Source: Chitinophaga pinensis
GTDB lineage: Bacteria; Bacteroidota; Bacteroidia; Chitinophagales; Chitinophagaceae
Length of the DNA: 64,000 nt
Direction: 5' to 3'
Assembly: GCA_945876095.1 (NCBI GenBank)
Contig: CAMCMP010000011.1
Span: 44,448 to 108,447, forward strand
In this document: piece by piece, positions 9,246 to 34,420 of the stretch
How the letters are laid out: each line of letters starts with the position of its first letter
Numbering within the stretch: position 1 is the stretch's first letter
Program-made: the position numbers and the translations under genes
The notes under the pieces: generated by a model
Database searches by the model: none
What the model saw: only the letters and a program-made list of their open reading frames with translations
What the model was told of the DNA's origin: nothing

Positions 9246-9248
9246 AAT

Positions 9249-9914: not shown

Positions 9915-9918
9915 ATAT

Positions 9919-10089: not shown

Positions 10090-10144
10090 ATAATTAAATT
10101 TGGATTTTTAATTTACTAAAAAATAATTTTAATAAATGAAGACA

Positions 10145-10594: not shown

Positions 10595-10615
10595 TTAAAT
10601 TTTATTATAATTAAA

Positions 10616-10657: not shown

Positions 10658-10702
10658 AAATTTTTAAAAAACTATTGTTGTTAAATGAATTAACTGAAAC
10701 TA

Positions 10703-11161
10703 CTAACTAGAAACTTGCGCCATAGATTCGTACGCCATTTCTAAAGTTTCAATAGCTGATTCATTTGCATCAGCTTTCATATCACTAATAGTCATCTTAA
10801 CAGGGAATGCTTCGTTCAAAGTCCAAGTCATGATTGGATTTCCATCTTCATCAAGAAGTGAAATCAACACAACAGATCTTTTGAAAGTATTCATTTGTAT
10901 AAGACTGTAGTAATCCCAAAGATCATTGTCATTTTTGAAGTTACCTTTCTTAAATACAACGTTAGTGAACTTTTTGATACCAGGCATTTTTACTACGGAA
11001 TAAAGCGTGTTGTGACCAGCTCTATATTCAATTACTTGAGTTTCAGATGAAAGCCCAGTAACTTCCGAGAAAAGTAATTCCTTATCATCAATTTTTACTT
11101 GAAATTGAAATTTGACTAAGGGCCAGGTATTTTCCGATTGATTATCTCCTAATTCTGCCAT
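10703..11161 (-). CDS. phage-tail tube protein paralogue 1 (T4 gp19-like; Cis1-like)
   Basis: 152 aa. WPLVKFQFQVKIDDKELLFSEVTGLSSETQVIEYRAG is the tube-family motif. It lies directly after the sheath gene. Confidence 0.9.
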   Translation of the reverse strand: MAELGDNQSENTWPLVKFQFQVKIDDKELLFSEVTGLSSETQVIEYRAGHNTLYSVVKMPGIKKFTNVVFKKGNFKNDNDLWDYYSLIQMNTFKRSVVLISLLDEDGNPIMTWTLNEAFPVKMTISDMKADANESAIETLEMAYESMAQVSS

Positions 11162-11218
11162 AAAATTATTTTTTAAATGGTTTTTTAAATTTAATTAATA
11201 CTACTTAATAATATGAAA

Positions 11219-12718
11219 TTAAGCTTCTTGTTGTTTTTGTTGGAATGTTAATACGATGAATTCAGCAGGTCTTACGATAGCAAGTTTAACCTCAATTCTC
11301 ATAATACCATCCAAAATATCACTTGGAGTCATAGTAGAACCTAATCCAACTGAAACTGAATACGCTTGTTCAGGAGATGAACCGGCAAGTGCACCAGATT
11401 TCCATTGATTAAACAAAAAGTTGTTAATTGTTGCACTAATAGTAGACCAAGTACCACCGTCATTTGGTTCGAAAACATAAGTACGAGCAGCTAATTTTAA
11501 TGATTGCTCGATCATGATTAACGTTCTTCTAACGTTGATATAACGCCAATCTTGACTATTACCATCTAGAGTACGTGCACCCCATATTAAAGTTCCGATA
11601 CCTGGGAAAGGACGGATCACATTAATTGACTTACCACCCATCAAATCTACGTTCAAACTTTCTTGTTCGTCGTGAGAAATGTTGATAGCAGGAGCATTTA
11701 CTGCGTTCATTGAAACGTTAGCAGGAGCTTTAAATACACCTCTACTAGTATCAACTAAAGTATAAATACCAGCCATACCAGCTGAAGGAGGTAATAAATT
11801 TAATGAATTACGAATTTCACCTAAAAGGTTTACATAAGTACCACTACAAGCACTCAATGATTGATGATAACTCTTACGAGCTTCAGCATCTACTGAATCA
11901 GCAGGTAATGCTTTAAATTTCTTAACTACCTCTTGAGCATTTGCTTCTGGTAATAAAGTTTCTAGAGTAATTGAATCATCAATATTTTCAAAAGTAACTT
12001 CTGAAGCAGTTACAACACTTGTTTTAACCCAAGGGAAGTAAGCAGCACCATAGTTTAAAGAATTCAAACCAATTTGCTCTCTGAACTCAGTAACTGTTTC
12101 AGTAGTGGTATTAGTTGGAACATTAGCAATATCAAAAATACCAAATCTACTTTGAGTTTTTGCGCAATGCATTAAAACCTGTTGGTAAACAGGATAGCAA
12201 CTAGCACCTTTCAAAATAATGTCTGGAATAACAACCAATGTTGGTTCAAATTCTTTTTCCAAAATTTTGAATGGATTGGGCTTAGTATCACTTCCCAAAA
12301 AGTCGTCAAATGCAATATCAAAACCTTCTGGTTTATCCCAGTAAGTTCCAACAGAAAGAATGTAGCAAGAACTTCCTCCATTTGCATAGAAAAATCTTAA
12401 AGCTCTGTACAACAAAAATTCATTGTTGCTTTTAGCTTTTACAGTAACTTCCTTTCCATTTAAAGTAAATGAATCCTTGTCAGTAGCAGCAGCATCAGCA
12501 ACTACATACTTTGTAAGGAATCCACCTCCAAAAAGTTCAACATACTCAGCAAAAGAATTAACTTTTGTTGGCACGTGAGAAAGTGATTTACCGTTTCTTG
12601 TAGCTTTGGCAGTGTACCCGATAAATACAGGAACAGCTGTCTCAACTGCACCAGCAGAGCTAGGAAAAGCATTCTTCTCCTCGATGTAAACACCCGGTGT
12701 CATTAATTTTGTAGCCAT
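11219..12718 (-). CDS. contractile sheath protein (Cis2-like)
   Basis: 499 aa. It has the N-terminal TPGVYIEE sheath hallmark and the C-terminal INVIRPFPGIGTLIWGARTL...WRYINVRR block. Confidence 0.92.
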   Translation of the reverse strand: MATKLMTPGVYIEEKNAFPSSAGAVETAVPVFIGYTAKATRNGKSLSHVPTKVNSFAEYVELFGGGFLTKYVVADAAATDKDSFTLNGKEVTVKAKSNNEFLLYRALRFFYANGGSSCYILSVGTYWDKPEGFDIAFDDFLGSDTKPNPFKILEKEFEPTLVVIPDIILKGASCYPVYQQVLMHCAKTQSRFGIFDIANVPTNTTTETVTEFREQIGLNSLNYGAAYFPWVKTSVVTASEVTFENIDDSITLETLLPEANAQEVVKKFKALPADSVDAEARKSYHQSLSACSGTYVNLLGEIRNSLNLLPPSAGMAGIYTLVDTSRGVFKAPANVSMNAVNAPAINISHDEQESLNVDLMGGKSINVIRPFPGIGTLIWGARTLDGNSQDWRYINVRRTLIMIEQSLKLAARTYVFEPNDGGTWSTISATINNFLFNQWKSGALAGSSPEQAYSVSVGLGSTMTPSDILDGIMRIEVKLAIVRPAEFIVLTFQQKQQEA

Positions 12719-12902
12719 TTTTTTGTTTTTGATTTTTGTTAAATAAAGAATTTTTATTTATTTGGAAGACAATAATAATCAAAATATTAACATGAATAAC
12801 ATTTTGCACAAATAATTTTAAAAGAAATATTTTATCCCAAAAATTTTATTAAAATATTAAATAAAATTTTAATATTTTTTTTATTCATAATACCTAACAG
12901 TA

Positions 12903-13742
12903 TTAAATGAAAATTTCTAAAACTCGCTTTTGATTTTCCAATATATATTCCTTTCCTAGGTAACTAATTTGGTTTGTTTTGGGTACCGGTAAATTAGGCA
13001 TTATGACACGACCATTGCTCTCCCCCAGTTTGTATTGTTCCAATAACTGCCAATTCATTTCTGGATGTTCTTTATATTCAATAACAGTAGGTGAAGTAAA
13101 AGCAATAGCAGGGTTGCCATTGGGTAACACAATACTTTGAGGTCCATTAAAAAAAACAGATTTGTTTTTACTTGCTACTGCAAGTCCCTCGAACTCTAAC
13201 AAATGAGACTGGTAAATTACATAGCGCCAAAAAAGTGATGGTGAAAAAAACTGAATTTTAAAATCAGCAGGAATAGCTTCATCCGTCGTTATTTCAATGT
13301 GCCCAAAGGGCTTTGAGAAATAGGGTTGTTCTAAAGAAGAATTATTCTTTAGATCATTTTCTGTTACACAGGCCTGACTATGCATTAATCCTTTTTGCGC
13401 TGGTATAAAAGAAAATGGATATTTAAAATAAAACAAATTTTCTTCAATCACAGATGGCATATAATCTGTATAATTAAAAAAATTGGCGTCGTTTAAAGTT
13501 ATTTTAAAATTTAAAACCAAATTATCAGATAAGATTTCTTCCCTGGTTCTTATATTATCAGCAAAATGTTCGGCAAAGAAAATAGCAATTCCGTTGACTT
13601 CCCTTCTTAAAATCAAATCATAGTTCTTGAAAATATTTTCAGTCAATTGATCAGGTTTCAACTGAAAATTAGTAAAATTACCATTCGTAAAATACGAATG
13701 ATAAAAATTAATACGAAACAATAATTGATAAGTCGAATTCAT
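12903..13742 (-). CDS. hypothetical eCIS-operon protein (279 aa)
   Basis: ORF track. It sits between the cap and sheath genes on the same strand. I recognise no motif. Confidence 0.6.
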   Translation of the reverse strand: MNSTYQLLFRINFYHSYFTNGNFTNFQLKPDQLTENIFKNYDLILRREVNGIAIFFAEHFADNIRTREEILSDNLVLNFKITLNDANFFNYTDYMPSVIEENLFYFKYPFSFIPAQKGLMHSQACVTENDLKNNSSLEQPYFSKPFGHIEITTDEAIPADFKIQFFSPSLFWRYVIYQSHLLEFEGLAVASKNKSVFFNGPQSIVLPNGNPAIAFTSPTVIEYKEHPEMNWQLLEQYKLGESNGRVIMPNLPVPKTNQISYLGKEYILENQKRVLEIFI

Positions 13743-13799
13743 ATTGAAAATTAAATCCAGTTAATTTAAAAAGTAAATCAAATGAATATTTATATTAAA

Positions 13800-14987
13800 T
13801 TATATTTTATCTGGACCTTTGTTCAAATTTTTATTGGGGTCATTGTTTGGATTATTTTGAGTACCCTTATTAATATCTGCATCAGGTGCATTTATATTAG
13901 GCTGAGCTGGTTTATTAGGTAATCCAAAGGGAGAAAACGATGAACCCCTGTTACCTTTTAATGGATTCAATTTACTTAAAACATCATTGTCTTTGTTATC
14001 TTTATTGCCTCTGTTGTCTCGATCATCCTCATTGTCTGGTTCATCAGATTTTTCAATTTTTTCATTATCCTCTTTAACTTGATCTTTATCATCATCAATA
14101 TCAGCAGCAGGTTTACTCATAAAATCATTAGAAATATTTTCTCTTGGATTATTATTTCCAGTTGGGCTTTCAGGTAAATCCCTATTGTCTTCATTGTCAT
14201 CATCATCATCATTACTGCCTCCGCCGAATGCTCCACCTAAAATAACTGGTCTCTTTCCAGTAGTTTTTGGAGTTTCAGTAGGCGGTGGTGTACTTGGTGG
14301 CGGTGCAGTACTAGTATTTGCTGGTGGAGCTTCATCCTTAGTAGTAGGATTTTGGTTAGTAGTATCACCTCCTGTTCTAGGTGTATTAGCATCAGCAGGA
14401 TTAAAACCTGAATTGTTATTAGCCCCACCGCCATTTTGATTGGTTCTTCTTGATAATACAGCAGCGGAAGGTCTAAATTCTTTAAGAGAATTAGAATCTA
14501 GTGGTATCATTCGAATTTTATACAATGCAGAAGGCATGGTTTTAGCACCAATCGCACCCCATAAATGGCTAATCTGGTCTAAGGATAGAGATTCTAATTC
14601 AACTTGAACTTTGAGTCCACCACTACTGGTGCTCTTTAACAATCCACTTTCAGCAATATCAATAGAACTATTATCATTCAAATAGTTCATTGTGAAGTCT
14701 AAAAATTTAAGTGCCTCACTATAATTAGTATTCGAAAAATAACAAGAAAAAAGAACATAAAAATTGATATGAACACGTTGTTTTCCATCTTTTTTAAGTC
14801 CCACAGTTGTAGGCTCTTTCTCAACACTGATTAAAGTGATCAATACCTTATTTTCTTCCAACTGGGCCACAGAACCATCTTGATTTAAAATACCAGATAT
14901 GACAGCTTTATCCTCTAATGTTCGAAGCCTAGTTTTAAAAAATATATTTAAACCATCCGTGATGGTCTGTATTACTTCATAAATCAT
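13800..14987 (-). CDS. DUF4255 / Pvc16_N-like tail terminator (cap) protein with a long low-complexity C-terminal extension
   Basis: 395 aa. The first ~178 aa (MIYEVIQTITDGLNIFFKTRL...NKVLITLISVEKEP...HLWGAIGAK) fit the DUF4255 pattern and the usual first-gene position. Residues ~180-395 are N/D/P/K/G-rich with no hydrophobic core. Confidence 0.8.
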   Translation of the reverse strand: MIYEVIQTITDGLNIFFKTRLRTLEDKAVISGILNQDGSVAQLEENKVLITLISVEKEPTTVGLKKDGKQRVHINFYVLFSCYFSNTNYSEALKFLDFTMNYLNDNSSIDIAESGLLKSTSSGGLKVQVELESLSLDQISHLWGAIGAKTMPSALYKIRMIPLDSNSLKEFRPSAAVLSRRTNQNGGGANNNSGFNPADANTPRTGGDTTNQNPTTKDEAPPANTSTAPPPSTPPPTETPKTTGKRPVILGGAFGGGSNDDDDDNEDNRDLPESPTGNNNPRENISNDFMSKPAADIDDDKDQVKEDNEKIEKSDEPDNEDDRDNRGNKDNKDNDVLSKLNPLKGNRGSSFSPFGLPNKPAQPNINAPDADINKGTQNNPNNDPNKNLNKGPDKI

Positions 14988-15312: not shown

Positions 15313-17790
15313 ATGAACTGTTTGTTTATAAAGTTTTTAAAAAAAACATTGCTTTTATTTTTATGCATTCTTGTATATAATACTTCTATAGCTCAAGTAC
15401 CAAAATCTGTTACCAAAGAATCTGCTTCTGCCACCAAAGCAGCTGCAGACGCTCAAAAGCAATTGGTTGAAGATGCAGAAAAAATTAAAAAAAGTTTGGC
15501 TTTTAAAGTGGCTGATTTTTTTAAATTCAAATCGAATGTAAGAAAAAATCAAAAAAAACGTACACTAGATTTAATTGAATCTCTTGGAATTCAAGATTCT
15601 ATCAATGTATCAGCAGAGAATATAAAATTTTTAATTGATGCACTTTCAAAAGTTGAAAATCAACATTTTGATACCCTGTTAAGTTTAATTAATGGACTCA
15701 AATTAAAACCTGAAGCATCTGTTATTACTGATGCACCAGATAATCCTGTTAATTCTTCTAATAAACCTGTTACAGATTCTGAAATTGATGAATTAACCAA
15801 TAAGATGCTACCATTGGTTGCCAAAGAAGGTGCTCAACCAGTAGATGTAAAGGCTAAAAATGAAAAAGTAGCAGAACTTAAAAAAGTTCAAGAACAGTTA
15901 GGCACTATCCATGAAATTAAAGATTCTATCAAAGGAATAACTAAAAGATATACTCTCGTTACTTCCAATAAAGTAAAAGTTTTAGGGTTTTTAAATTACA
16001 ATAGTCAACCAGATCCAGATTATAATTATGACAATTTTGATAACGTTATTTTTAATGGACTATTTGTTGATGGTAAAACTGGTAATTTTAAAAATTTAAA
16101 CGGTTGGGACAATTCCCCTACCCTTTCATCGCTTACACAGTCTGGAGTTAATCCTATCGTAAATGTTATCTTCTCCAACAATGAAGATTTTTCATCTATA
16201 CTACTTAATAAATCTAATCAAGAATTATTTTTCAAGAACACATTGTACGTAATGAACCTCCATAATACCAATGGAGTTAGCTTACAAATAGATCAACCTG
16301 ATCCATTGTTGAAAAATGAATTATCAGAATTTATTCAAGCTTTCAGCTCTAAAATCAAAGCGGCTAATAAGGATTATCTTGTTTATTTAATTTTACCCAA
16401 TGCTAAGGTTAATGCACCTTTTGATTTAGCGAAATTTGATGAGTTTATTGATTTTTATATTTTAAATTTTTACAACCCGACAGAATTAAAAATTCCAGGG
16501 CCCATTGCTTCTATCAAAGGAAAGGATTTGAGTAGTATTGAATCTACTTTTTCCTATTATTCCAATATGAATGTACTGCCAGGCAAATTTATTCTTGGTT
16601 TAGGATATCAAGGAACCCGATGGAGTTATTCAGCCTCTTCAAGAAGTTTTAAGTTTTCACAACAATTAACCTATTCAGAAATTAGAAAAAATTATCTATG
16701 GCCAGTTATCTATGATGATGAGAAAGGAACGGTTACAATGGATAGTGTTAATAAAAAAGGTTTGTTGGAAAGAAGAATATATTTTGAAGATGAAAATTCA
16801 TTAGCTAAAAAATACGACTTCGTTTTAGACAATGCCTTAGGGGGTGTAGCCTTATACTCTGTTGGATTTGATGAAGGGTATGGAGAATTGAATGACATGA
16901 TTTTTTACAAATTTGGTAAGATAGACACCATTGCTTTAGAAAATTCTGTAACTACAAAAACTGATTTATCAAAAATTTCTTTTTTTAAATCAGTAGCTTT
17001 AAAATATAGTTTATATTCATTCATCTTAAATGAACCTTGTGAAGTTTGTTTCGAAAATATTAATGATACTAATAAAATAAAATCTTCTTTAAACTTAGCT
17101 ATTCAACTTCTTGGATATGACACTACAGCAAGAAAAAAGGGTGTCGCCACCTTTACAATTGCCAACGAAAGTTTAAATATAAATGTAAAAGGCTTACTTT
17201 TTTTAGTAGTTTTAATAGCTGGTTTACTTTCTTTTTTACTTTTTCTTAGAACAAAAAATCAGGAAGCAACCAATAGAGGTAAATATCATAAAATACTTCC
17301 AGCTTCTGTGATCTTTACTTGGTATTGGGTTTTTGTTTTACTTCTAGTAGTATTATTTACTAGTGATTCGGTACCTTGGTTTGGTCAGAGTAATCAATTA
17401 AATAGTTCAGCAAATGCTAAGGATAGCACTAAAAAAAATATGACCATAGGATCACTTTATCAAAAAGCATCTACTCAAAAACGCAAAACGCAAAGTGCTA
17501 TAAATAAAGCAAAAAATTTACCACGCTCAGCACAAAGAATTTTAACCAGAAGACTTCTTTATGGTTCTAAATCTTCTCCTACCCAAGAGGCTGATACCAA
17601 TCAAGAATTATCATCCGAAGATTCATTAAATATTCAAGCTGATGAACTTTGTAAAAAAACTAGTTCTACTGTATGTATTAATATGCCATTTAAAACTTTA
17701 TGGGCTATCATAACATTTGGAATGTTTATTGGCGGAATTCTTGGATGGTTAATTATTAAAAACTTGTTAAATAAGGTGGATGTTCCATAA
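15313..17790 (+). CDS. membrane-anchored GH18-like (chitinase-fold) protein with a degenerate catalytic motif
   Basis: 825 aa. There is a signal-like N-terminus (LLLFLCILVYNTSIAQ). GH18 strand motifs are recognisable (DFYILNFYN, KFILGLGYQGTRW, GGVALYSVGFDEG). The DGxDxDxE position reads NGVSLQID. There are three C-terminal hydrophobic helices (GLLFLVVLIAGLLSFLLFL, VIFTWYWVFVLLLVVLF, LWAIITFGMFIGGILGWLII). Confidence 0.6.
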   Translation: MNCLFIKFLKKTLLLFLCILVYNTSIAQVPKSVTKESASATKAAADAQKQLVEDAEKIKKSLAFKVADFFKFKSNVRKNQKKRTLDLIESLGIQDSINVSAENIKFLIDALSKVENQHFDTLLSLINGLKLKPEASVITDAPDNPVNSSNKPVTDSEIDELTNKMLPLVAKEGAQPVDVKAKNEKVAELKKVQEQLGTIHEIKDSIKGITKRYTLVTSNKVKVLGFLNYNSQPDPDYNYDNFDNVIFNGLFVDGKTGNFKNLNGWDNSPTLSSLTQSGVNPIVNVIFSNNEDFSSILLNKSNQELFFKNTLYVMNLHNTNGVSLQIDQPDPLLKNELSEFIQAFSSKIKAANKDYLVYLILPNAKVNAPFDLAKFDEFIDFYILNFYNPTELKIPGPIASIKGKDLSSIESTFSYYSNMNVLPGKFILGLGYQGTRWSYSASSRSFKFSQQLTYSEIRKNYLWPVIYDDEKGTVTMDSVNKKGLLERRIYFEDENSLAKKYDFVLDNALGGVALYSVGFDEGYGELNDMIFYKFGKIDTIALENSVTTKTDLSKISFFKSVALKYSLYSFILNEPCEVCFENINDTNKIKSSLNLAIQLLGYDTTARKKGVATFTIANESLNINVKGLLFLVVLIAGLLSFLLFLRTKNQEATNRGKYHKILPASVIFTWYWVFVLLLVVLFTSDSVPWFGQSNQLNSSANAKDSTKKNMTIGSLYQKASTQKRKTQSAINKAKNLPRSAQRILTRRLLYGSKSSPTQEADTNQELSSEDSLNIQADELCKKTSSTVCINMPFKTLWAIITFGMFIGGILGWLIIKNLLNKVDVP

Positions 17791-17814: not shown

Positions 17815-18423
17815 ATGTCTTTGTTAGATACTGCCTCTATATTTAAATATCATAATAATCTCACTCGTCAATTTGAAAAGGGAGATGTTAGAAGACTAGG
17901 TTGGATTAATACAGAGACACAGCAACTTCGCTTTTCTACACTCAGTAAAATAGCTGATTTTGATAACTGTTCTGTTTTAGATGCAGGCTGCGGCTATGCT
18001 GATTTGTGTGGATATTTAAAAAACATTTACCCTACCTGCAGATATTATGGTATCGAACAAATTCCTGATTTTATTCTAAAGGCATTAAACGATTATGGGA
18101 ATATGCCAGACGTGGTATTTTTTCAGGGGGATATTGAAACGGCTTCCTTACCAATTTTAGACTATACCCTAGCCTCTGGATTGATGAATTACAAAAACAG
18201 TAACCCATTGTATATTTTTGAAATGATACAAAAGCTTTTTGTAGGTTGCAGGCTAGGACTGGCTTTTAATTTACTTTCGAAAGAGCCTGAAAATAATTCT
18301 TTGGTAAATTCTTACGATAAAAATATGATCTTTTCTTTTTGTAAAACCCTTAGCCCCCATTGCGTTTTGCACGATGATTATTTAGAGAATGATTATACAA
18401 TTTTTATGTATCATAGACCATAA
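17815..18423 (+). CDS. small class-I SAM-dependent methyltransferase
   Basis: 202 aa. SAM-binding motif I is VLDAGCGYADLCGYL, followed by an acidic post-I residue (YYGIEQ). Confidence 0.75.
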   Translation: MSLLDTASIFKYHNNLTRQFEKGDVRRLGWINTETQQLRFSTLSKIADFDNCSVLDAGCGYADLCGYLKNIYPTCRYYGIEQIPDFILKALNDYGNMPDVVFFQGDIETASLPILDYTLASGLMNYKNSNPLYIFEMIQKLFVGCRLGLAFNLLSKEPENNSLVNSYDKNMIFSFCKTLSPHCVLHDDYLENDYTIFMYHRP

Positions 18424-18467: not shown

Positions 18468-18559
18468 ATCTTTTCCTTTTGTAAAACGCTTAGCCCCCAC
18501 TGCGTTTTACACGATGATTATTTAGAGAATGATTATACAATTTTATGTATCATAGATAA
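18468..18559 (+). pseudogene. tandem partial duplicate of the methyltransferase 3' end
   Basis: 18468-18559 repeats 18328-18423 (atcttttc.tttttgtaaaac..ttagccccca.tgcgtttt.cacgatgattatttagagaatgattatacaa...) with a few substitutions and a 1-nt deletion. No start codon is present. Confidence 0.8.
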
Positions 18560-18845: not shown

Positions 18846-21119
18846 ATGGTAGCCAATATATCCAAGAATCAATTAAATAACACTCCTGATAAAGGGAAAG
18901 TTAATTCCAATCAAAACACTTCAACTACTTCACTTAGCTCTCCTGTTTCACAATTATTGAAAAAAGATAGTTCAGAAGTTAATGACCAGCTAAATAGTGG
19001 TTCTAAATCTTTGAAAAGCATACAATTTTTTGGGGAAAATGAAAATCATCAAAATAATCCTACTAGTTCAATAGCATTAAATTCTTCTCCATCTTTTCCA
19101 CCAATTCAGCGCAAAGGTTCAACTGATCATTCGCCGAAGGCTGCTGGTTCTGCTAATAAAACTGGATTGCCTGATGGTCTAAAATCAGGTGTAGAGGCTT
19201 TATCAGGCATGTCTCTAGATGGTGTAAAGGTTCATTATAATTCAAGTGCTCCTGCTCAATTACATGCGCATGCTTATGCACAAGGAACAAATATACATGT
19301 AGCACCAGGACAAGAAAAGCATTTGCCTCATGAGGCTTGGCATGTAGTACAACAAAAACAAGGTAGAGTTCAAGCTACCAAACAAATGAAGGGGGAAGTG
19401 CCAGTAAATGACGATGCTGGATTAGAAAAAGAAGCAGATGTGATGGGTGCAAAAGCGGTGCAAATGGCTGCCAAGGAGAATGGTGGTGTAGTACAACAAA
19501 TATCTTCTTCTAATAATGCGGTAGCTCAGTTGGGAATGTTTGATTGGATGAAATCGATGTATAAAGGGGCGAAGAGGATGTTGGGTTTTGGGGAGGAAGA
19601 GAAGAAAAAGGAAAAGTTTGTTGGAGTAAATCCTTGGAAAACTGAAGAAAATCAAAATGTAATAAATGATAAATATCAAGAGAAAATAGACGAAAAGGTA
19701 AAAGAAAGAAATCATCAAACTTTATTTGAAAATTTACCGTTTAATCCAGCAATTGAAGATACTGAACCAGCTAAAGGACAGGATTTAAGTATAATTCCAA
19801 AAGGTAAGGTAGAAGGTATTAAAAAAGGTATTGTTGTTGCAGATGGCGAAAAGGGTGAAGCTGATAATGATAGAAAAAATGATTTAGAAAAACATTTTAA
19901 AGAAAAAATCCGTCGGCAAGAGCTTGTATCAAAGCAAAAACATGGTCAAGGAATGGCAGAGCAAATTGCTAAAGGAGGAGACGGTAATAATGAGAATGTT
20001 GATAATTTCACTAAGGACGAAGTAGCACCTGAAGCGATGTCGCAAAATTTAATGGATCTGGTAAGTCTGACTAAGTACGATGATACTGCTTCGGCTAGTG
20101 TTCTTGAATTAGCAAATGGTGGTAGCGATCTTAGTGACCAAGATATGTGGAACCTTATAGTCGTCAACTCAAAGCTTATGTCATACATTAAGGAAGGAAT
20201 GACAGTTAATAAAATTATTCCAGACGAAACAGTTAAACATGTCATAAAATACAAGCAGACTAGCGCTGATAGGACTGATGATGAGAAGGATTATGATAAA
20301 AAGAGAAAAGTTACTAAGATTGGCGGATCTGTTGCCCATGAGATGAATTATAACCAAGGACTCACTGGGGAAGAGTCTACTGCAAATTTTGGACTTGATT
20401 ATTCTGGTTATAAATCTGATACTTTGAGATCGGATGGTACTTCGATTCTTGACAACCAGTGGGAAAATAGAAAGAATACTGACAAAGAACTCGCTCATAG
20501 CGATTATGTTTTCGATGCTGCAGCGGATGAAAAAGGTCGGACTTTAAAAGCTGTACCAAATGTATTTTATATGAAAGTAGCAATACCCGCAGTGAATTTA
20601 CCTGACGTTAAAGTTCCAGTCCACGGATATGTCCAGAACTGGGCTAATAATAAGTTACATGAAATCCAAACAATCATGGGGAATCCAAATGAATTGTTAT
20701 TATTAGCAACAAGTTTAGGTGCGAAAAATTCAAATGAGATGAGTGAATCTTTAACCAAAAAGCTTGCTATTTTGAATCTATTTAATGAAAGAAGTAAGGT
20801 GGATAAAGGTATGTTGACAACACTTACAGCTGATAAGAAGAAAAATAAGGAAGATCCTTTAACGAATATGGGCATGACAAAGCCTAGCTCAAGATTACAA
20901 ACTGAATTTGGTACTATTAACCAAGAGTATCATATTGGATTATTTGATGTTCCAGAAGGATCTGGACTTTGGCTAAAGGATGCAACTGGCGTTGATACTC
21001 TAGTAGGCCAATTTGTCCAAAATCCCAATAATTCCAATCAAATTGAGTGGGGGAGTTTAGATGAAAATATAATTAATAAGAAACTTACAGAAAATTCGGA
21101 TTTGAGAAAGAAGAAATAA
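18846..21119 (+). CDS. DUF4157-domain eCIS effector candidate 1 (757 aa) with an unknown C-terminal domain
   Basis: It has a polar N-terminal leader. The DUF4157 block is GLPDGLKSGVEALSGMSLDGVKVHYNSSAPAQLHAHAYAQGTNIHVAPGQEKHLPHEAWHVVQQKQGRV, with HExxH at nt 19329-19343. The ~530-aa C-terminus has no motif I recognise. Confidence 0.8.
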   Translation: MVANISKNQLNNTPDKGKVNSNQNTSTTSLSSPVSQLLKKDSSEVNDQLNSGSKSLKSIQFFGENENHQNNPTSSIALNSSPSFPPIQRKGSTDHSPKAAGSANKTGLPDGLKSGVEALSGMSLDGVKVHYNSSAPAQLHAHAYAQGTNIHVAPGQEKHLPHEAWHVVQQKQGRVQATKQMKGEVPVNDDAGLEKEADVMGAKAVQMAAKENGGVVQQISSSNNAVAQLGMFDWMKSMYKGAKRMLGFGEEEKKKEKFVGVNPWKTEENQNVINDKYQEKIDEKVKERNHQTLFENLPFNPAIEDTEPAKGQDLSIIPKGKVEGIKKGIVVADGEKGEADNDRKNDLEKHFKEKIRRQELVSKQKHGQGMAEQIAKGGDGNNENVDNFTKDEVAPEAMSQNLMDLVSLTKYDDTASASVLELANGGSDLSDQDMWNLIVVNSKLMSYIKEGMTVNKIIPDETVKHVIKYKQTSADRTDDEKDYDKKRKVTKIGGSVAHEMNYNQGLTGEESTANFGLDYSGYKSDTLRSDGTSILDNQWENRKNTDKELAHSDYVFDAAADEKGRTLKAVPNVFYMKVAIPAVNLPDVKVPVHGYVQNWANNKLHEIQTIMGNPNELLLLATSLGAKNSNEMSESLTKKLAILNLFNERSKVDKGMLTTLTADKKKNKEDPLTNMGMTKPSSRLQTEFGTINQEYHIGLFDVPEGSGLWLKDATGVDTLVGQFVQNPNNSNQIEWGSLDENIINKKLTENSDLRKKK

Positions 21120-21289
21120 CTAAGAAGTTACTTACTTAAACTATCAATTTAACAAACAAAACTATTTCAAAAATAATCCTATTCATTATTTTAATGATCA
21201 ATACATTTTGAGCTTGTTTTAAGAAAGTAACCTATCTTTTATTAGATCATCTAAAATGATTTTGATAAAACATTAGTTACAATCTATCC

Positions 21290-21532
21290 TCAGGATTATT
21301 AAATTAAAAAAATAGCAATCCATTATATGTTTTTGAAATGATTCAAAAGCTTTATAAAGAGTGTAGATTAGGACTAGCTTTTAATATGCTTTCAAAAGAA
21401 CCAGATAAAAATTCAATTTTAAATGGTTATGATAAAAATATAATTTTTTCTTTTTGCAAAACTTTAGCCCCTAAACGTAGTTTACACGTTAACCAATAAA
21501 TGAATGATTACTCTATTTTCCTGTTTCATTAA
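21290..21532 (+). pseudogene. decayed 5'-truncated methyltransferase paralogue
   Basis: It translates to PLYVFEMIQKLYKECRLGLAFNMLSKEPDKNSILNGYDKNIIFSFCKTLAPKRSLHVNQ*MNDYSIFLFH*. The intact gene has PLYIFEMIQKLFVGCRLGLAFNLLSKEPENNSLVNSYDKNMIFSFCKTLSPHCVLHDDYLENDYTIFMYHRP. The fragment has an in-frame stop and no N-terminal half. Confidence 0.75.
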
Positions 21533-21765
21533 GAGTATAATTTAAAATTTTACCTTTTATATTAAAATATTTTTTAAAGTAATTTCGATTTTATTTTAAA
21601 AAATATTTAAAACTTACATCTTTTTCAATAATTACCTATAATTAATTCTATAAATTATTGTAAAATTTTTAAAAATTGTTAATTTCATAATTTTTTTTTT
21701 TAATGCTTTGATTTTTAAAATATTAACATTTAAATTTACTAACTGTTTAATTTAAAAATTTAAGT

Positions 21766-23772
21766 ATGGTAACCCTCACCTCTAGAACAAAAAATAATAA
21801 TAATTCTGATAATAAGAAGAATACTTCTAATGGAATTGCACCAAGTGCTGCGCTCCCTTCTCCAGTAACGCAACTTTTTAGAGAGGATCAATCAGTTGAT
21901 GACTTCAAACAAGAAAATGGGTCATTGGCTACAAAAGATATTCATTCGTTTGGAGAGATTGGAATTCCTCCAAATAATAATTCAGGTTCAAAACAATTAA
22001 AATCTTCTCCATCATTCCCTGCTATTCAACGTAAGAGTTCAAATATTAATGCGCAGAAAACAGCACCAAATAATAAAACTGGATTACCAAATAATTTAAA
22101 ATTGGGTGTTGAACAGTTATCAGGTATCTCATTAGATGACGTAAAAGTTCACTACAATTCAAAAGAGCCTAAACAACTCAAAGCCCATGCTTATGCCAAA
22201 GGAACGGATATACATGTAGCGAGTGGTCAGGAGCAACATCTCCCTCATGAAGCCTGGCATGTGGTACAACAAAAGCAAGGTCGAGTTCAAGCTACCACTC
22301 AATTGAAAGGAAATGTCAATATTAATGACAATGCCTCACTAGAGAATGAAGCAACTCAAATGGGTAAAAAAGCTTTAAATAATAATATCCAAGATTCTAA
22401 AAAGTCGCTTAATAAAGCTTCTATTCAGACCCCTACTGCTCAATTGTGGTCATGGGGGGGATTGTGGGGTTCAGCTAAAGAAAAGGGCAAAAAAGTACTG
22501 AATGATGAAGTCCTTGGTGAAGTAAAGGATGAATTTTCATTGGGAAATAAAGCTGGTAAACAACTTGAAAGATTTGGTAATATGGCAATGGGTAAGGGAA
22601 ATGAACAAAATGCAGATCCCGGACAGGATGCAGAAGGCTCTTTTTGGTCGAAAATTAAAAAACCTGGAAAATATTATGAAGATGAAAGTGATGATCATCA
22701 AAAACATAAAGGTGGCTTTATGAAAGGGGCTGTTGGAGGCGCTCTAGGTACTGTTGGAGGACTTGCAGGTGGAGTATTAGGAGGACTTGCAGGAGGTGCT
22801 AAAGGTGCTGTTAATAGTATTGGTAATGGAATCAACAGTTTATCATCATGGTGGAATGGTAAACCAAATACAACTGAGAAAAAGCCTGGATTTTTTGAAT
22901 CAATGTGGAGTGGAGCTAAATCTGGAGGTAAAACAGGAAGAGATATAGGTAGAGTTGCTGGTTCTGGTATCGTAGATGGTACAAAAGCGCTTGCTGGAGG
23001 TGCCGCCGGACTAGCTACAGGGGCAGCTGGAGGAGTTGTAGGCGCATTAGGAGGTGTAGCACATGGTGCCTACAATAAATATCATGGAAAGGGTGATTTT
23101 TTTGATACTGTAAAAAAAGATGCTAAAGCTGGGGCTAAAGGAGGATTCAATGTTGGAAAAGGTGTTGTAGATGCAGGATTTGGATTAGTTGAAGAAGCTC
23201 CTGAATTGGCAATGAATTTGGGTAGAGGTGCTTTAGGGGCAGCTGGAGGAGTTGTAGGCGCATTAGGAGGTGTAGCACATGGTGCCTACAATAAATATCA
23301 TGGAAAGGGTGATTTTTTTGATACTGTAGGAAAGGATGCTAAAGCTGGGGCTAATTTTGGTGCAAACTCGAATTTAACTAGAAATGTTTTGGGTACTGCC
23401 GCCGTGGCTGGATCAACTCTTGCTGGTGGTTTATTGGGTGGACCAGCTGGACTAGCTGCTGGATATACTGCTGCCCATGCTAATTCTAGATATTGGGGTG
23501 CATCAAAATCACAAGCAGACATCTCAGCTTTAGTGAGTACTGCTGGTGGTGCAGCATCAGGACTAATTAATGCAGATCTTCCTGGACTTGGCAATGCTGC
23601 AATTCCAGAAGCTGCCTATTATTCTGCAAAGGGTGCAGCTACGCTTGGTAATGTCGGAACAGGTGTTGCTTTAAATCAGACTTATGAATCTTTGAAGAAA
23701 GATAATAATCCTGATGAAGTTAAAACAGATTGGGGGAGTATGTTAGAAATGGGCACAATACCTTTTAGTTAA
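21766..23772 (+). CDS. DUF4157-domain eCIS effector candidate 2 (668 aa) with a glycine-zipper-rich C-terminal domain
   Basis: It has the same leader plus DUF4157 module (HEAWHVVQQKQGRV). From ~aa 315 the sequence is Gly/Ala-rich (GAVGGALGTVGGLAGGVLGGLAGGAKGAV...) and contains an internal 72-aa duplication. Confidence 0.8.
   Translation: MVTLTSRTKNNNNSDNKKNTSNGIAPSAALPSPVTQLFREDQSVDDFKQENGSLATKDIHSFGEIGIPPNNNSGSKQLKSSPSFPAIQRKSSNINAQKTAPNNKTGLPNNLKLGVEQLSGISLDDVKVHYNSKEPKQLKAHAYAKGTDIHVASGQEQHLPHEAWHVVQQKQGRVQATTQLKGNVNINDNASLENEATQMGKKALNNNIQDSKKSLNKASIQTPTAQLWSWGGLWGSAKEKGKKVLNDEVLGEVKDEFSLGNKAGKQLERFGNMAMGKGNEQNADPGQDAEGSFWSKIKKPGKYYEDESDDHQKHKGGFMKGAVGGALGTVGGLAGGVLGGLAGGAKGAVNSIGNGINSLSSWWNGKPNTTEKKPGFFESMWSGAKSGGKTGRDIGRVAGSGIVDGTKALAGGAAGLATGAAGGVVGALGGVAHGAYNKYHGKGDFFDTVKKDAKAGAKGGFNVGKGVVDAGFGLVEEAPELAMNLGRGALGAAGGVVGALGGVAHGAYNKYHGKGDFFDTVGKDAKAGANFGANSNLTRNVLGTAAVAGSTLAGGLLGGPAGLAAGYTAAHANSRYWGASKSQADISALVSTAGGAASGLINADLPGLGNAAIPEAAYYSAKGAATLGNVGTGVALNQTYESLKKDNNPDEVKTDWGSMLEMGTIPFS
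21781..22449 (+). repeat. near-identical N-terminal module, copy A (shared with 24411-25075)
   Basis: Direct comparison by eye of the two nucleotide stretches shows only scattered substitutions plus one 6-nt (two-codon) indel in the run of Asn codons near the 5' end. Identity stops immediately after ...actgctcaattgtgg. Confidence 0.85.
23021..23354 (+). repeat. tandem duplication inside effector 2 (118-nt near-identical blocks, 216-nt period)
   Basis: 23021-23138 and 23237-23354 both read gggcagctggaggagttgtaggcgcattaggaggtgtagcacatggtgcctacaataaatatcatggaaagggtgatttttttgatactgta...gatgctaaagctggggctaa. Both encode GAAGGVVGALGGVAHGAYNKYHGKGDFFDTV. Confidence 0.9.
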
Positions 23773-23801
23773 AATTATACAATTAATAAATAAAATTTCC
23801 A

Positions 23802-24308
23802 ATGATATTAGAAATAAAAAAAATCTTAGAAGAAAACGATGTTGCTTATGTTTATCACCCGAAAAGTGAAAATCTTCCCGTTGATAAAATAGATATTGAA
23901 CTAATCATTGAAAATTATCCACCTAATCTTCCAAATAAAATTGAGTTAATCTTTGTTCCTGGCATCGAAGAAGCTACCAAAGGTTTAAGTCTACTTCAAT
24001 TTTATTCGATCCTCAATCTAAAAATAAATGAAAAAGAGGCTATTAAAGTTGATTTAATGAGATTGATGTCAGATATCAATTATACTCTAGCAGCTGGTGC
24101 ATTTATATTAAATCTAAATGAGGATAATATTTATTTGAAATACAATTTAGCTATAGACCAATCACAAGAAAATAAAGATTTGGAACTAAAAATATCTAGA
24201 ACAATATGGTTAATCAGTCGCCATTTTGATGTGTATACAAAATTGTTTGTTCAAATAAACAATGAAACTTTAACCTACAACGAAATAAAAACCAAAGGTA
24301 TTATTTAA
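23802..24308 (+). CDS. small cytoplasmic protein (168 aa), possibly a secretion-chaperone-like (CesT/YbjN-like) effector partner
   Basis: ORF track. It starts 30 nt after the effector 2 stop. No signal peptide or TM segment is visible. The pattern LLQFYSILNL...AAGAFILNLNEDNIYLKYNLAI...TIWLISRHFDVY resembles the beta-sheet/helix pattern of T3SS-type chaperones. This resemblance is a judgement by eye. Confidence 0.6.
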   Translation: MILEIKKILEENDVAYVYHPKSENLPVDKIDIELIIENYPPNLPNKIELIFVPGIEEATKGLSLLQFYSILNLKINEKEAIKVDLMRLMSDINYTLAAGAFILNLNEDNIYLKYNLAIDQSQENKDLELKISRTIWLISRHFDVYTKLFVQINNETLTYNEIKTKGII

Positions 24309-24394
24309 ATTTTCAGAAAAAAATAACTTTTAATATTATTTTTCGTTTTATTCACAAGTAGCGTTAAAAGTAGATTTTAAATTATTAATAACAA

Positions 24395-26437
24395 ATGGCA
24401 GCTTTCAGCTCTAGAACAAAAAAAAATAATTCTGATAATGAGAAGAATACTTCTAATGGAATTGCACCAAGTGCTGCGCTCCCTTCTCCCGTAACACAAC
24501 TTTTTAGAGAGGATCAATCAGTTGATGACTTCAAACAAGAAAATGGGTCATTGGCTATAAAAGATATTCATTCGTTTGGAGAGATTGGAATTCCTCCAAA
24601 TAATAATTCCGGTTCAAAACAACTAAAATCTTCTCCATCATTCCCTGCTATTCAACGTAAGAGTTCAAATATTAATGCGCAGAAAACAGCCCCAAATAAT
24701 GAAACTGGATTACCCAATAATTTAAAATCGGGTGTTGAACAGTTATCAGGTATCTCATTAGATGACGTAAAAGTTCACTACAATTCAAAAGAGCCTAAAC
24801 AACTCAAAGCCCATGCTTATGCCAAAGGAACAGATATACATGTAGCGAGTGGTCAGGAGCAAGATCTCCCTCACGAAGCCTGGCATGTGGTACAACAAAA
24901 GCAAGGTCGAGTTCAAGCTACCACTCAATTGAAAGGAAATGTCAATATTAATGACAATGCCTCACTAGAGAATGAAGCGACTCAAATGGGAAACAAAGCA
25001 TTGAATAATAATACCCAAGATTCTAAAAAGTCGCTTAATAAAGCTTCTATTCAGACCCCTACTGCTCAGTTATGGGGATTACCAAAATGGCTTGGAGGTA
25101 AGGATGAAGAAAAGGAAAAACCAAAAAATATTAATGATATTGTCGCAAATCATAGCAAAACAGGGCAAAAAGAAAAATTAGGAGAAACATCAAAAGAGGA
25201 TCTTTTAAAAAATAGATTGGCAGCCAGAAGGGCAGCCCTTAATGGAGAGGAAGTTGAAGATCAAGATACCAAAACTAATTCAGTAGAATCAATCCCGAAA
25301 GCCGCTGGGTTTAATAAAGATTTTCAATCAAAATTGGGAGGTATGATCTCTACGGATAAAAATGAACAATTGAATAAAAAAAGGGATGCCTTTGAAGGAC
25401 ATGCACTTAAACAATCAGCTTATGCAGATAGAGCTAAACCAGGTGAAGAAAATTCTTGGGGTTCATGGTTTAAAAGTAAAGCCAATGCTGTCGGAAGGGG
25501 AATGAATAATTTTAAAGAAGCAGGTAAGAGCAAAATTGGAAATACATGGCTAGGTAAAAAAATGGGTATTTCAGGTCTAAATAAAAATGAAAGAGATGCG
25601 GCTGATGCTAAATCTAATGAAATTTCTAGAGGAAACGATGTTATTAAGTCATACAATAAAGAGGGTGGAGAACTTGAGGGTCAAGCTTCAAAAATTGGAA
25701 TAGCAACAACAATTGGAGCATTCGTTGCAGGTAAAGCCCCTGTTGGGGGTAAAGTAGCGAAAAACTTAGTAAAAGCTGGAGGGTCTGCTGCTCAAGAAAA
25801 TAGATACAATAAGGCTTCAAATGCTTATAAAGAAGATAAACACGATGCACTTGTAAATATTGGATCAGAAGCTAAAGGTAAAGGTGTGGAATTAAAAGGA
25901 AAGCAAGCACATTTAGATAAGCAAGGACATCTTGCCGGAGCTGCTGGAGCATTAGTTGATGAGTTGAACCCATTGGGAAAATTAGATCATTTGGTACAAG
26001 AAGCAACAATGGGATATGTCAAATTGCCATCTGCTGAATTAGCCGCAAGAAATCTAGTTAAGGCTAAAAATTACAAGGAACAATCCAAAATAGATGAAGA
26101 GAGTAAGGGTGTTGATGCTGGCCAAGCGTTAGCATTTGCTCGACAAAATACGGGAGGAATTGATAGGAAAGCCTTCAATGAGCACAAAACTAAAAATAAA
26201 GGTCTTTTTGATGAATTGGGTTCCAAGTTTAATGATGGATCAACTATTTTATCCAAAGCAGGTATTTCAGAAAAGGATGATCCAAAATTAAAGGATGGAG
26301 TCTTAAAACATGTGGATAATTCCAAAAAAGAATCTAGTAAAAAAGAAAGTATTGGAATAAATGAAGATATGCTAGCTAGAATTAGAGGTATGCAGCCAGA
26401 AGATGATACTGAAAAAGATGAGGATAATGATTGGTAA
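24395..26437 (+). CDS. DUF4157-domain eCIS effector candidate 3 (680 aa) with a Lys/Glu-rich C-terminal domain
   Basis: The first ~227 aa are almost identical to effector 2, including HEAWHVVQQKQGRV. After TPTAQLW the sequence is unrelated. That part is hydrophilic with one Gly-rich hydrophobic stretch (IGIATTIGAFVAGKAPVGG). Confidence 0.8.
   Translation: MAAFSSRTKKNNSDNEKNTSNGIAPSAALPSPVTQLFREDQSVDDFKQENGSLAIKDIHSFGEIGIPPNNNSGSKQLKSSPSFPAIQRKSSNINAQKTAPNNETGLPNNLKSGVEQLSGISLDDVKVHYNSKEPKQLKAHAYAKGTDIHVASGQEQDLPHEAWHVVQQKQGRVQATTQLKGNVNINDNASLENEATQMGNKALNNNTQDSKKSLNKASIQTPTAQLWGLPKWLGGKDEEKEKPKNINDIVANHSKTGQKEKLGETSKEDLLKNRLAARRAALNGEEVEDQDTKTNSVESIPKAAGFNKDFQSKLGGMISTDKNEQLNKKRDAFEGHALKQSAYADRAKPGEENSWGSWFKSKANAVGRGMNNFKEAGKSKIGNTWLGKKMGISGLNKNERDAADAKSNEISRGNDVIKSYNKEGGELEGQASKIGIATTIGAFVAGKAPVGGKVAKNLVKAGGSAAQENRYNKASNAYKEDKHDALVNIGSEAKGKGVELKGKQAHLDKQGHLAGAAGALVDELNPLGKLDHLVQEATMGYVKLPSAELAARNLVKAKNYKEQSKIDEESKGVDAGQALAFARQNTGGIDRKAFNEHKTKNKGLFDELGSKFNDGSTILSKAGISEKDDPKLKDGVLKHVDNSKKESSKKESIGINEDMLARIRGMQPEDDTEKDEDNDW
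24411..25075 (+). repeat. near-identical N-terminal module, copy B (shared with 21781-22449)
   Basis: See copy A. Identity ends after ...actgctcagttatgg. Confidence 0.85.
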
Positions 26438-33778: not shown

Positions 33779-34420
33779 ATGAAAAAACAAACCAATCATA
33801 TTTATTTACTATTAGGCTTGATTTTCCTATACACTTTTTTTATTAAGGCTAATTGTCAAAGTACTGTAAAAATTGGTAACCAAACATGGACTACTAAAAA
33901 TTTAGATGTCAGTAAGTATAGAAATGGAGATGAAATACAGCATGTTGATGATCCTCTTACTTGGTCTAAGTTAACATATGGAGCCTGGTGCTATTACGAA
34001 AATGTTGACTCAAATGGCACAACTTATGGCAAATTGTATAATTTGTATGCTGTATTGGATCCACGTGGATTAGCACCAGCAGGATTTCACATTCCATCCG
34101 ATAAAGACTGGACTACCCTTACAGACTATTTAGGTGGTAAGGATGAAGCTGGAGTAAAGATGAAAGAAGCAGGTACTACGCATTGGCCTAGGCCTAATAC
34201 TGGAGCTACCAATAGCAGCGGATTTACTGGCCTTCCTGCAGGTTACCGAGATGACAATGGCGTATTTGTTAGTATGGGAGTCAATGGCTTCTGGTGGAGT
34301 TCTACCGAGGGTTTTACCTATTTTGCTTGGAATCGTTATCCTGATACTCTTTATGGATTGGTAGGTAGAGACTTTGGTTATAAAAGTTATGGTATGTCTA
34401 TTCGATGCGTTGCAGATTAA
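33779..34420 (+). CDS. FISUMP (Fibrobacter succinogenes major paralogous domain) secreted protein
   Basis: 213 aa with a signal peptide. Supporting blocks are IGNQTWTTKNLDV, YGKLYNLYAV, LAPAGFHIPSDKDWTTLTDYLGG, GFTGLPAGYR and FWWSSTE. Confidence 0.8.
   Translation: MKKQTNHIYLLLGLIFLYTFFIKANCQSTVKIGNQTWTTKNLDVSKYRNGDEIQHVDDPLTWSKLTYGAWCYYENVDSNGTTYGKLYNLYAVLDPRGLAPAGFHIPSDKDWTTLTDYLGGKDEAGVKMKEAGTTHWPRPNTGATNSSGFTGLPAGYRDDNGVFVSMGVNGFWWSSTEGFTYFAWNRYPDTLYGLVGRDFGYKSYGMSIRCVAD

Follow-up and report, generated by a model that had tools for sequence, protein, structure and literature searches.

The closest described relatives of the genes reported here are DUF4157 proteins carried by contractile injection systems (CISs). 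In the part of Zhang et al. 2012 (PMC3482391) drawn on here, the domain is named PVC-metallopeptidase and defined by the pattern HExxHxxQ...E, and constant N-terminal peptidase modules are recombined with variable toxins, for which autoproteolytic release is proposed. The same part of that paper states that many such toxins are without immunity genes and that distant organisms are possible targets (PMC3482391). The portions used of Geller 2021 (PMC8213781) and Danov 2024 (PMC11297309) present DUF4157, in cis or in trans, as the main marker of extracellular CIS (eCIS) toxins. In this work three DUF4157 genes, designated E1, E2 and E3, were analyzed in a stretch of 64,000 nucleotides from Chitinophaga pinensis (GCA_945876095.1, contig CAMCMP010000011.1, positions 44,448 to 108,447). 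This whole stretch is called the window, and coordinates refer to it unless another locus is named. E1-E3 quite probably serve the neighboring clade Ib CIS as cargo effectors and are built like Cgo1 and Cgo2 of AlgoCIS.

In AlgoCIS the lumen of the tube is occupied by Cgo1 and Cgo2, which are freed on contraction (Xu et al. 2022, PMC8894135). [quoted passage not shown] According to the PROCIS 2026 preprint (10.64898/2026.05.27.728243), loading needs the NTD but neither DUF4157 nor the CTD. The AAA+ ATPase Alg15 is essential for loading and probably unfolds the cargo (10.64898/2026.05.27.728243). SalCIS, the CIS of Salmonella enterica subsp. salamae, also has a DUF4157 protein, SalCgo1, and its HExxH mutant remains toxic (PMC13266070).

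E1 (18846-21119), E2 (21766-23772) and E3 (24395-26437) are open reading frames (ORFs) of 757, 668 and 680 aa on the + strand, located exactly as in a preliminary description that had been made from the letters alone. A hidden Markov model search, proposed there as a check, matched all three to PF13699 (DUF4157, now 'eCIS_core') at about aa 106-173, where they score 33.6-34.8 bits (the cutoff is 22) with E about 2-5e-8 (1.9e-8 for E1). Each protein consists of a leader, a DUF4157 module and a CTD, here also called the warhead. In E1 the leader (aa 1-105, 18846-19160) is followed by the module (aa 106-230, 19161-19535), which ends in VAQLG, a low-confidence K/E-rich linker (aa 231-~340) and a conserved CTD (aa ~340-757, about 19863-21116). 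In E2 the leader (aa 1-104) precedes the module (aa 105-228, 22078-22449), and in E3 the leader (aa 1-103) precedes the module (aa 104-227, 24704-25075); both modules end in TAQLW. The E2 CTD is Gly/Ala-rich and the E3 CTD (25076-26434) is Lys/Glu-rich. HEAWHVVQ is found at aa 162, 161 and 160 of E1, E2 and E3 (HEAWH at 19329-19343, 22246-22260 and 24872-24886), and LE[K/N]EA follows about 30 residues later at aa 193, 192 and 191. The HExxHxxQ...E zincin signature is complete in all three.

This layout is the one known from Algoriphagus machipongonensis. Like Cgo1 and Cgo2, E1-E3 combine an apparently disordered, system-specific NTD with DUF4157 and differing CTDs, and AlgoCIS likewise has several paralogues per locus, without signal peptides, beside a clade Ib CIS with an AAA+ ATPase. 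The likeness is one of domain layout; AlgoCIS has two effectors and the window has three with different CTDs. In the sections considered here, PVC-metallopeptidase toxins share with E1-E3 a constant HExxHxxQ...E module, recombined variable CTDs and a frequent lack of immunity genes, and the wider eCIS toxin set shares DUF4157 in cis and in trans and CTDs that are mostly unannotated. Unlike the PVC-metallopeptidase toxins, the CTDs of E1-E3 match no named Tox or Ntox Pfam family. The preliminary description had read the array as polymorphic DUF4157 CIS cargo with swapped C-termini. This interpretation is supported by the Pfam matches, the adjacent CIS with its AAA+ loader, a recombination-like junction and the match to Cgo1/Cgo2, yet almost every element of it is already in print. 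The three-gene locus is a further case of an established DUF4157 cargo architecture.

At a distance of 4 kb from the effectors is a complete CIS of clade Ib, whose operon occupies 1-14987 on the - strand as judged by Pfam and PDB sequence matches; its tape measure and AAA+ ATPase are just past the left edge of the window. An eCIS context had only been implied before. A CIS operon is indeed present, outside the 18846-26437 array, but the word 'extracellular' goes beyond what these genes establish. All three warhead types recur elsewhere in CIS context.

The leaders are rich in S, N, K and P, contain no Cys and have a mean Kyte-Doolittle hydropathy of about -1.0. Every 10-aa window of the E1-E3 leaders has a hydropathy of at most 0.85. 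Because there is no hydrophobic stretch, the leaders contain neither a Sec/Tat signal peptide nor a transmembrane (TM) segment, in agreement with the earlier statement that signal peptides are lacking. Two islands noticed earlier, SPV[ST]QL and SSPSFP[PA]IQRK, are conserved in the alignment. The E1 leader is 41% identical (aa) to the leaders of E2 and E3. Beyond the window, leader conservation was found in syntenic relatives only, namely the related metagenome contigs L001 (84%) and L002 (77%). No leader conservation was found in three other loci, L012, L013 and L008, despite a common DUF core and CTD. The leader appears to be common within one system and different in other systems.

HEAWH is found in 118/120 diverse DUF4157 homologues, and the DUF4157 core keeps 70-78% identity across phyla. 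Over the N-terminal module as a whole, E1 shares about 66% DNA identity with E2 and E3, and 74% aa identity in the DUF4157 core. The first ~681 nt of the E2 and E3 genes, start codon included, share 96.0% DNA identity. Directly past the TAQLW codons, at about 22441 in E2 and 25067 in E3, the two genes show no more than background identity (57% in a global alignment rich in gaps). The junction previously placed at AQL[G/W] is thus sharp. The near-identity of the two N-terminal modules points to a recent exchange of warheads, or to gene conversion, at this junction. The CTDs are unrelated, as had been claimed, with hhalign probabilities of <1% between the E3-type, E2-type and L001-type families; the L001-type is a fourth CTD mounted on the same N-terminal module in L001. 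A sequence search of the PDB with the DUF4157 module gave nothing significant.

DUF4157 was also observed in trans. At L007 (10001-13884) and L018 (5395-8522), DUF4157-less effector-like genes with short leaders adjoin stand-alone DUF4157 genes of 160-199 aa, DUF4280 genes and AAA genes. Two consecutive effectors in L007 have a common 80-aa leader at 86% identity.

Across 122 DUF4157 proteins the motif [T/V/A/I]-[V/A/I/L]-Q-[L/R/M] occurs ~64 residues past HExxH, at the point of divergence. A like motif (IQRK) is present at the N boundary of DUF4157 and again within leaders. Compared with shuffled controls, the C boundary is enriched 4.4x in the motif, the N boundary 6.6x and leaders 4x; the value for CTDs is 1.05x. 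In the DUF4157-less cargo of L007 and L018, beside the stand-alone DUF4157 genes, the motif ends the leader (SIQL/VFQL, TVAQM). Such a boundary motif is compatible with a peptidase that releases the warhead, be it in cis or in trans; it might just as well represent the terminal strands of a larger domain or an element recognized by the loader.

The first of these possibilities is that DUF4157 is an autoproteolytic releasing peptidase which, once delivered, refolded and loaded with Zn2+, would cut at the flanking hydrophobic-Q-[R/L/M] motifs. A cut after L in ...AQL(W/G) would free the warhead and a cut after R in ...IQRK would detach the leader, and both could coexist with delivery of E1-E3 as lumen cargo. 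The preliminary description raised this idea, which had already been published by Zhang et al. 2012 (PMC3482391). It fits the intact catalytic signature of all three effectors and the HEAWH of nearly all homologues, and the cross-phylum identity of the core argues for strong selection beyond that expected of a passive linker. The fixed position of the motif at the divergence point and its recurrence at the N boundary and in leaders are also in its favor, and the leader ends in L007 and L018 fit cleavage in trans. However, deletion of DUF4157 left loading intact, protein L11_433 is without both DUF4157 and the motif, and a sequence-related solved structure was not found. The motif may simply be the terminal beta-strands of a domain that is larger than the Pfam model of 79 residues, or an element by which loader or tube recognizes the cargo. 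Furthermore, cleavage of Cgo1, Cgo2 or SalCgo1 has not been reported, and HExxH mutants of Cgo1 and SalCgo1 are still toxic in E. coli; these two points also count against the post-delivery role that we favor for DUF4157 below. The published mutant data are neutral to mildly negative with regard to autoprocessing, and we regard release by this peptidase as unlikely.

The E1 CTD belongs to a family of 38 clusters, DUF4157-fused or free-standing, some of which are annotated as Synechococcales or Cognaticolwellia. At one locus a DUF4157-less E1-type CTD lies directly behind CIS_TMP and AAA genes; CIS genes are absent within 8 kb of another DUF4157-less member. Many polar residues are invariant in the family alignment (D460, D518, H593, D670, R683 and E694 in E1 numbering). 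An AlphaFold2 (AF2) model of the CTD has a predicted TM score (pTM) of 0.69 and a core predicted local distance difference test score (pLDDT) >85. Foldseek comparison of this model with PDB and BFVD returned no match with E <0.2, and sequence searches of the PDB with the E1 and E3 CTDs found nothing significant. The E1 warhead may thus be described as a conserved CIS-linked family for which a known fold was not matched, and its conserved residues suggest that it is probably an enzyme.

The E2 CTD consists of 21% Gly and 15% Ala and contains 32 [GAS]xxxGxxx[GAS] motifs, which form glycine zippers in four hydrophobic segments (aa 319-349, 407-435, 481-508 and 540-570; about 22720-23475, + strand). 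The segments have a Kyte-Doolittle hydropathy of 1.3-1.45, and the zippers are kept in homologues. An internal duplication of 125 nt (repeat D4) is found at 23014-23138 and 23230-23354. E2-type CTDs with or without DUF4157 occur in L008, L011, L012 and L013. No Pfam or NCBIfam match was obtained for the E2 CTD, and homology to a described toxin family was not found; none of the effectors, nor the small gene described below, matches NCBIfam. By analogy with known glycine-zipper toxins, the E2 warhead is predicted to be membrane-active. EsxX and TelE, glycine-zipper depolarizing effectors of type VII secretion systems, likewise pair tandem (G/A/S)xxxGxxx(G/A/S) zippers with a soluble partner. 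Sequence homology to E2 is not shown and the delivery machine differs; E2 is also unlike them in having several zipper segments over about 250 residues and the internal duplication.

The region 22001-24000, over the E2 CTD, has a locally raised GC content (0.39 compared with about 0.31), and its GC skew is also raised. The content of the whole window is about 32%. The local rise is attributable to the Gly/Ala-rich composition of the CTD, not to foreign DNA.

The E3 CTD family is small, with just 8 clusters, is conserved from end to end and is nearly always fused to DUF4157. TAQLW is kept in this family even where leaders differ. The neighbors of relatives include a stand-alone DUF4157 gene as well as DUF4280 PAAR-like, AAA and CIS_TMP genes. 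E3 has a weakly hydrophobic segment at aa 432-454 and an acidic C-terminus ending ...EDNDW. A single divergent membrane-active family was considered for the CTDs and rejected, as the E3-, E2- and L001-type profiles are unrelated in profile-profile comparison. An acidic-Trp motif was also noted near the C-termini (EWGSLDE at 21035-21055 in E1, DWGSMLE at 23728-23748 in E2 and EDNDW at 26420-26434 in E3) and is kept within each of the three unrelated CTD families. It was rejected as a general signal because Trp makes up 1.56% of tails and 1.35% of the body in the diverse DUF4157 set, and is either local or due to chance.

Directly after E2 is a small gene, S (23802-24308, + strand), which encodes an acidic soluble protein of 168 aa (pI 4.92, 19.5 kDa). 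The S family has about 40 representative clusters, and 30/31 members are acidic. S was found directly downstream of a CIS-linked effector with a Gly/Ala-rich hydrophobic CTD in 7/7 informative contexts, these being the window, L012, L013, L008 (with its near-duplicate L009), L011, L001 and L018. The effector is E2-type in the first five, while L001 and L018 have a second type with one hydrophobic hairpin. A genome scan with a narrower S alignment found two loci only. No orphan S genes were seen, as both genomic matches and all metagenomic contexts retain the toxin partner. The L013 contig (CAZPKI010000052.1) is binned as 'uncultured Limnohabitans sp.' (Betaproteobacteria), and its E2-type effector is accompanied by an S 77% identical to that of the window. 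The closest counterpart of L013 is in an Algoriphagus metagenome-assembled genome, which points to mis-binning or horizontal transfer.

An AF2 model of S (pLDDT 94, pTM 0.87) has an alpha-beta-beta-beta-(beta)-alpha-beta-beta-alpha fold like that of type III secretion class I chaperones and YbjN proteins. Almost all of its top Foldseek matches belong to these two groups (ExsC, VecA, SigE, SchA, SicP, CesT, SpcU, YbjN and AmyR; probability 0.96-1.0). In Pfam, 13/32 members of the family weakly match YbjN (best E 5e-4) and 1/32 matches CesT_Tir_1 (1.1e-3). Searches of the PDB with the S sequence and the S-family profile found nothing. Like type III class I chaperones, S is small, acidic and adjoins its presumed client, which in both cases would have to be unfolded or soluble before ATPase-driven export. 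The differences are that a type III system is absent here, that sequence similarity is marginal, and that type III chaperones bind an N-terminal domain whereas the putative binding site of S would be the C-terminal glycine-zipper warhead.

On the strength of the modeled fold, the acidity of the family and its strict occurrence behind Gly/Ala-rich hydrophobic effectors, S is more likely a dedicated cargo chaperone or cytoplasmic neutralizer than a classical immunity protein. A chaperone is also suggested because the cargo would need unfolding and threading by the AAA+ ATPase and because precedents exist. In the EsxX system the glycine zipper is sequestered by soluble ExiAB, which works on the toxin only while it is cytoplasmic, ahead of export, and JF50_12605 of the metamorphosis-associated contractile structures (MACs) is chaperone-like for Mif1. 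A dedicated chaperone-like warhead partner is undescribed for AlgoCIS, and a search of the accessible literature found no report tying YbjN-like proteins to contractile injection systems. Several observations weigh against the assignment. The Foldseek matches are modest (E about 7e-3, TM score 0.4-0.66), and S scores 14.3 bits against Pfam YbjN, below the cutoff of 22. E3 and protein L7_479 each have a weakly hydrophobic segment without an S partner. A soluble immunity function may also be served by S.

In that case S would guard sister cells against E2 delivered by neighbors, and the array would serve contact-dependent or kin-directed antibacterial competition. The position of S directly past the toxin is that of polymorphic toxin-immunity pairs, and in L012 the conservation of S exceeds that of its toxin partner (80% vs 47%). 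Two further points in favor of immunity are that SalCIS, the nearest machine with a solved structure, appears to be membrane-associated and that clade Ib also holds systems of the subtype iv type VI secretion (T6SS(iv)) kind. However, S has neither signal peptide nor TM segment, while protection against externally delivered glycine-zipper toxins is typically provided by membrane proteins. The fold and acidity fit secretion chaperones, and the lack of orphan S genes is likewise unfavorable. E1 and E3 are wholly without a partner: no cognate immunity ORF of at least 25 aa follows either, so the arrangement expected of polymorphic toxin-immunity loci is absent there. The spacer after E1 contains a methyltransferase pseudogene remnant alone, and 16 bp separate E3 from the end of a convergent FGE-sulfatase gene downstream; the earlier remark that neither effector has an adjacent small gene agrees with inspection of these regions. 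Classical immunity is rather improbable as the function of S, and the chaperone or neutralizer role is preferred.

The type of machine that would carry E1-E3 was judged from the operon. PDB sequence matches were obtained to SalCIS (9R9H/9RCE), AlgoCIS (7ADZ/7AEB) and the Anabaena thylakoid CIS (7B5H). The closest solved sheath is that of SalCIS (E 1.7e-132), ahead of AlgoCIS and Anabaena, and these relationships place the machine in clade Ib. The baseplate proteins have their best match in AlgoCIS. Clade Ib spans extracellular systems (AlgoCIS, MACs) and cell-anchored systems (Amoebophilus, Aureispira T6SS(iv)) (PMC13266070). Compared with AlgoCIS, the effectors are cap-proximal, on the divergent side of the operon past a membrane protein of glycoside hydrolase family 18 (GH18) and a methyltransferase, and the sheath is nearer SalCIS. 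SalCIS provides the closest solved sheath, matching baseplate proteins and, in SalCgo1, DUF4157 with HExxH. Its effectors adjoin the AAA gene, whereas those in the window are at the opposite operon end, in a different host phylum.

The operon reads on the - strand from the cap (Pvc16_N, 13800-14987) through a 279-aa protein without Pfam or NCBIfam match (12903-13742), the sheath (11219-12718) and two gp19-type tubes (10703-11161 and 10145-10594). A 56-aa DUF5908 protein (about 9919-10089) lies between the second tube and a CIS_tube+LysM protein (9249-9914). A VgrG-like spike (7449-9245), PAAR (7134-7430), gp25 (6695-7108) and an Alg11-like baseplate protein of 1270 aa (2846-6658) follow. A 261-aa protein without Pfam or NCBIfam match (2058-2843) separates the latter from an Alg12-like protein (1-2040), which is cut by the window edge. 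Past the window the source contig continues with CIS_TMP (1957 aa) and then the AAA ATPase.

The GH18 protein (15313-17790, + strand, 825 aa) lies between operon and effectors. It has an N-terminal signal, a Pfam GH18 match (E 2.8e-22), three C-terminal TM-like windows (about 620-650, 660-692 and 795-818) and a weak match to SleL (4s3j, E 0.03). This signal-GH18-3TM layout equals that of SalCis20, a proposed membrane/peptidoglycan-remodeling component of SalCIS (PMC13266070). No match to SalCis20 (9R9A) was found even at E up to 10 and with a three-sequence profile, so only the resemblance in layout is retained.

A cell-anchored machine of the T6SS(iv)/SalCIS kind would fire from inside the producer and deliver E1-E3 on contact. 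The SalCIS sheath as best match, above AlgoCIS, and the conserved protein of SalCis20 layout between operon and effectors are in line with this arrangement, and no tail-fiber gene was recognized in the operon through the AAA gene. On the other hand, the fiber search ended at the AAA gene and a fiber gene may lie beyond it. The same clade holds the extracellular AlgoCIS and MACs, and AlgoCIS is closest in the baseplate. Sequence homology of the GH18 protein to SalCis20 is undetected, and the mode of action of SalCIS itself is unsettled (PMC13266070). A cell-anchored machine is therefore possible, though we lean against it.

A location other than the tube lumen was also considered. E1-E3 could be baseplate- or spike-associated parts, like the Streptomyces DUF4157 protein Tme, which co-purifies with tip and spike proteins, or effectors coupled to PAAR/DUF4280. 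A DUF4157 protein of Streptomyces davawensis co-elutes with proteins of the baseplate, and relatives of E3 and of S-paired effectors do adjoin DUF4280 PAAR-like genes. But the operon has its own separate tape-measure protein, E1-E3 have no tape-measure-like regions and no PAAR or DUF4280 fusion, and their architecture is that of Cgo1/Cgo2, lumen cargo of the same clade. Such a location is highly improbable.

The region upstream of E1 suggests how the array grew. A class I S-adenosylmethionine-dependent methyltransferase gene (17815-18423, + strand, 202 aa, Pfam Methyltransf_31/25) follows the GH18 gene, and the two are kept in the same order in L001 and L002. Both syntenic loci have the methyltransferase directly upstream of the effector; CIS loci that are more distant did not show it. 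A tandem repeat of the methyltransferase 3' end (25 aa, 100% identical) lies just downstream of the gene at 18468-18544. A pseudogene remnant on the + strand between E1 and E2 (21272-21529, repeat family D3) was detected by tblastn/blastn and includes a 53-aa ORF (21338-21499). It corresponds to methyltransferase residues 115-200 with 66% aa and 75% nt identity. Because this remnant and a homologous upstream spacer precede E2, the array is concluded to have grown by tandem methyltransferase-effector duplication. In L001 just one effector, bearing the fourth CTD type, is found between the methyltransferase and FGE-sulfatase genes, together with an S homologue. A split DUF4157 gene in L001 (226-aa and 452-aa ORFs) was rejected because a scaffold-gap N run lies at the junction (about 5394-5410). 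This suggests that repeated N-terminal modules break metagenome assemblies, and arrays like E1-E3 are therefore probably under-assembled in public data.

Scans for sigma-70 promoters and intrinsic terminators gave results at chance level. One Bacteroidota-type TAnnTTTG motif is located upstream of E1, at 18586. The genes to the right of E3 in the window are housekeeping genes. The PGI of this organism falls in a 90%-identity cluster that also contains one from a Chitinophagia metagenome-assembled genome. Two convergent 213-aa paralogues (33779-34420, + strand; 34615-35256, - strand) match the Fibrobacter succinogenes major domain PF09603 with E about 1e-45. A 718-aa protein (61816-63972, - strand) has an unusual combination of a DUF2231 membrane domain, a Planctomycete cytochrome c domain, leucine-rich repeats and chitobiase/Fn3-associated C-terminal domains.

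For E1-E3 as cargo of the adjacent CIS, the observations consist of domain content, synteny, the junction, family distributions and predicted folds. Several points nevertheless weigh against this interpretation. The E1-E3 locus is known here from its genes alone. Leader disorder was read from composition rather than with a predictor, and the enzyme reading of E1 draws solely on the invariant polar residues. That no tail-fiber gene was recognized as far as the AAA gene has the same bearing, and the system may be non-extracellular.

We propose the following sequence of events. The leader would be recognized by the AAA+ ATPase of the operon, which would unfold the cargo and thread it into the tube lumen; lumen location and leader/AAA+-dependent loading have been demonstrated for homologous architectures elsewhere and are extended to E1-E3 by analogy. 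S would hold the hydrophobic E2 warhead in the producer cytoplasm until hand-over to the AAA+ ATPase, averting aggregation or self-intoxication. Sheath contraction would expel the cargo into the target, where the C-terminal warhead would act. E1 is probably enzymatic, E2 is predicted to be a multi-glycine-zipper membrane-active warhead, and E3 carries a conserved Lys/Glu-rich one. Whatever is said here of their activity and targets, of the chaperone role of S and of processing is inferred. DUF4157 would be an accessory module, most likely for post-delivery processing or refolding and not for loading. Tandem methyltransferase-effector duplication, together with recombination at the junction motif, would have produced an array with swapped warheads.

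The leads that are new here are, first and foremost, the S-warhead module, and further the E1 warhead family, the family-wide boundary motif, the array duplication and the SalCis20-like GH18 protein. Among these, the boundary motif and the S partner, and also leader specificity, are not described in the portions of Zhang et al. 2012, Geller 2021 and Danov 2024 cited above. A bolder proposal combines two of the leads: S would found a family of CIS cargo chaperones with the type III/YbjN fold, and the motifs that flank DUF4157, or that close the leaders of DUF4157-less cargo, would be cleavage sites of DUF4157 in cis or in trans. We consider this combination a long shot. If true, the S family would sequester membrane-inserting warheads and hand them to the AAA+ ATPase, giving CIS cargo a 'load, inject, self-excise' logic.

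The boundary motif offers a precise, mutable site for the releasing-peptidase hypothesis of 2012. The 96%-identical N-terminal modules of E2 and E3, with their unrelated warheads, are a natural experiment on leader sufficiency. Two uncharacterized CIS-linked warhead families are candidates for new toxin activities. The warhead and S module suggests how producers handle membrane-active cargo before loading, a matter left open by the cargo-loading literature, and may be relevant to engineering CISs for hydrophobic payloads.

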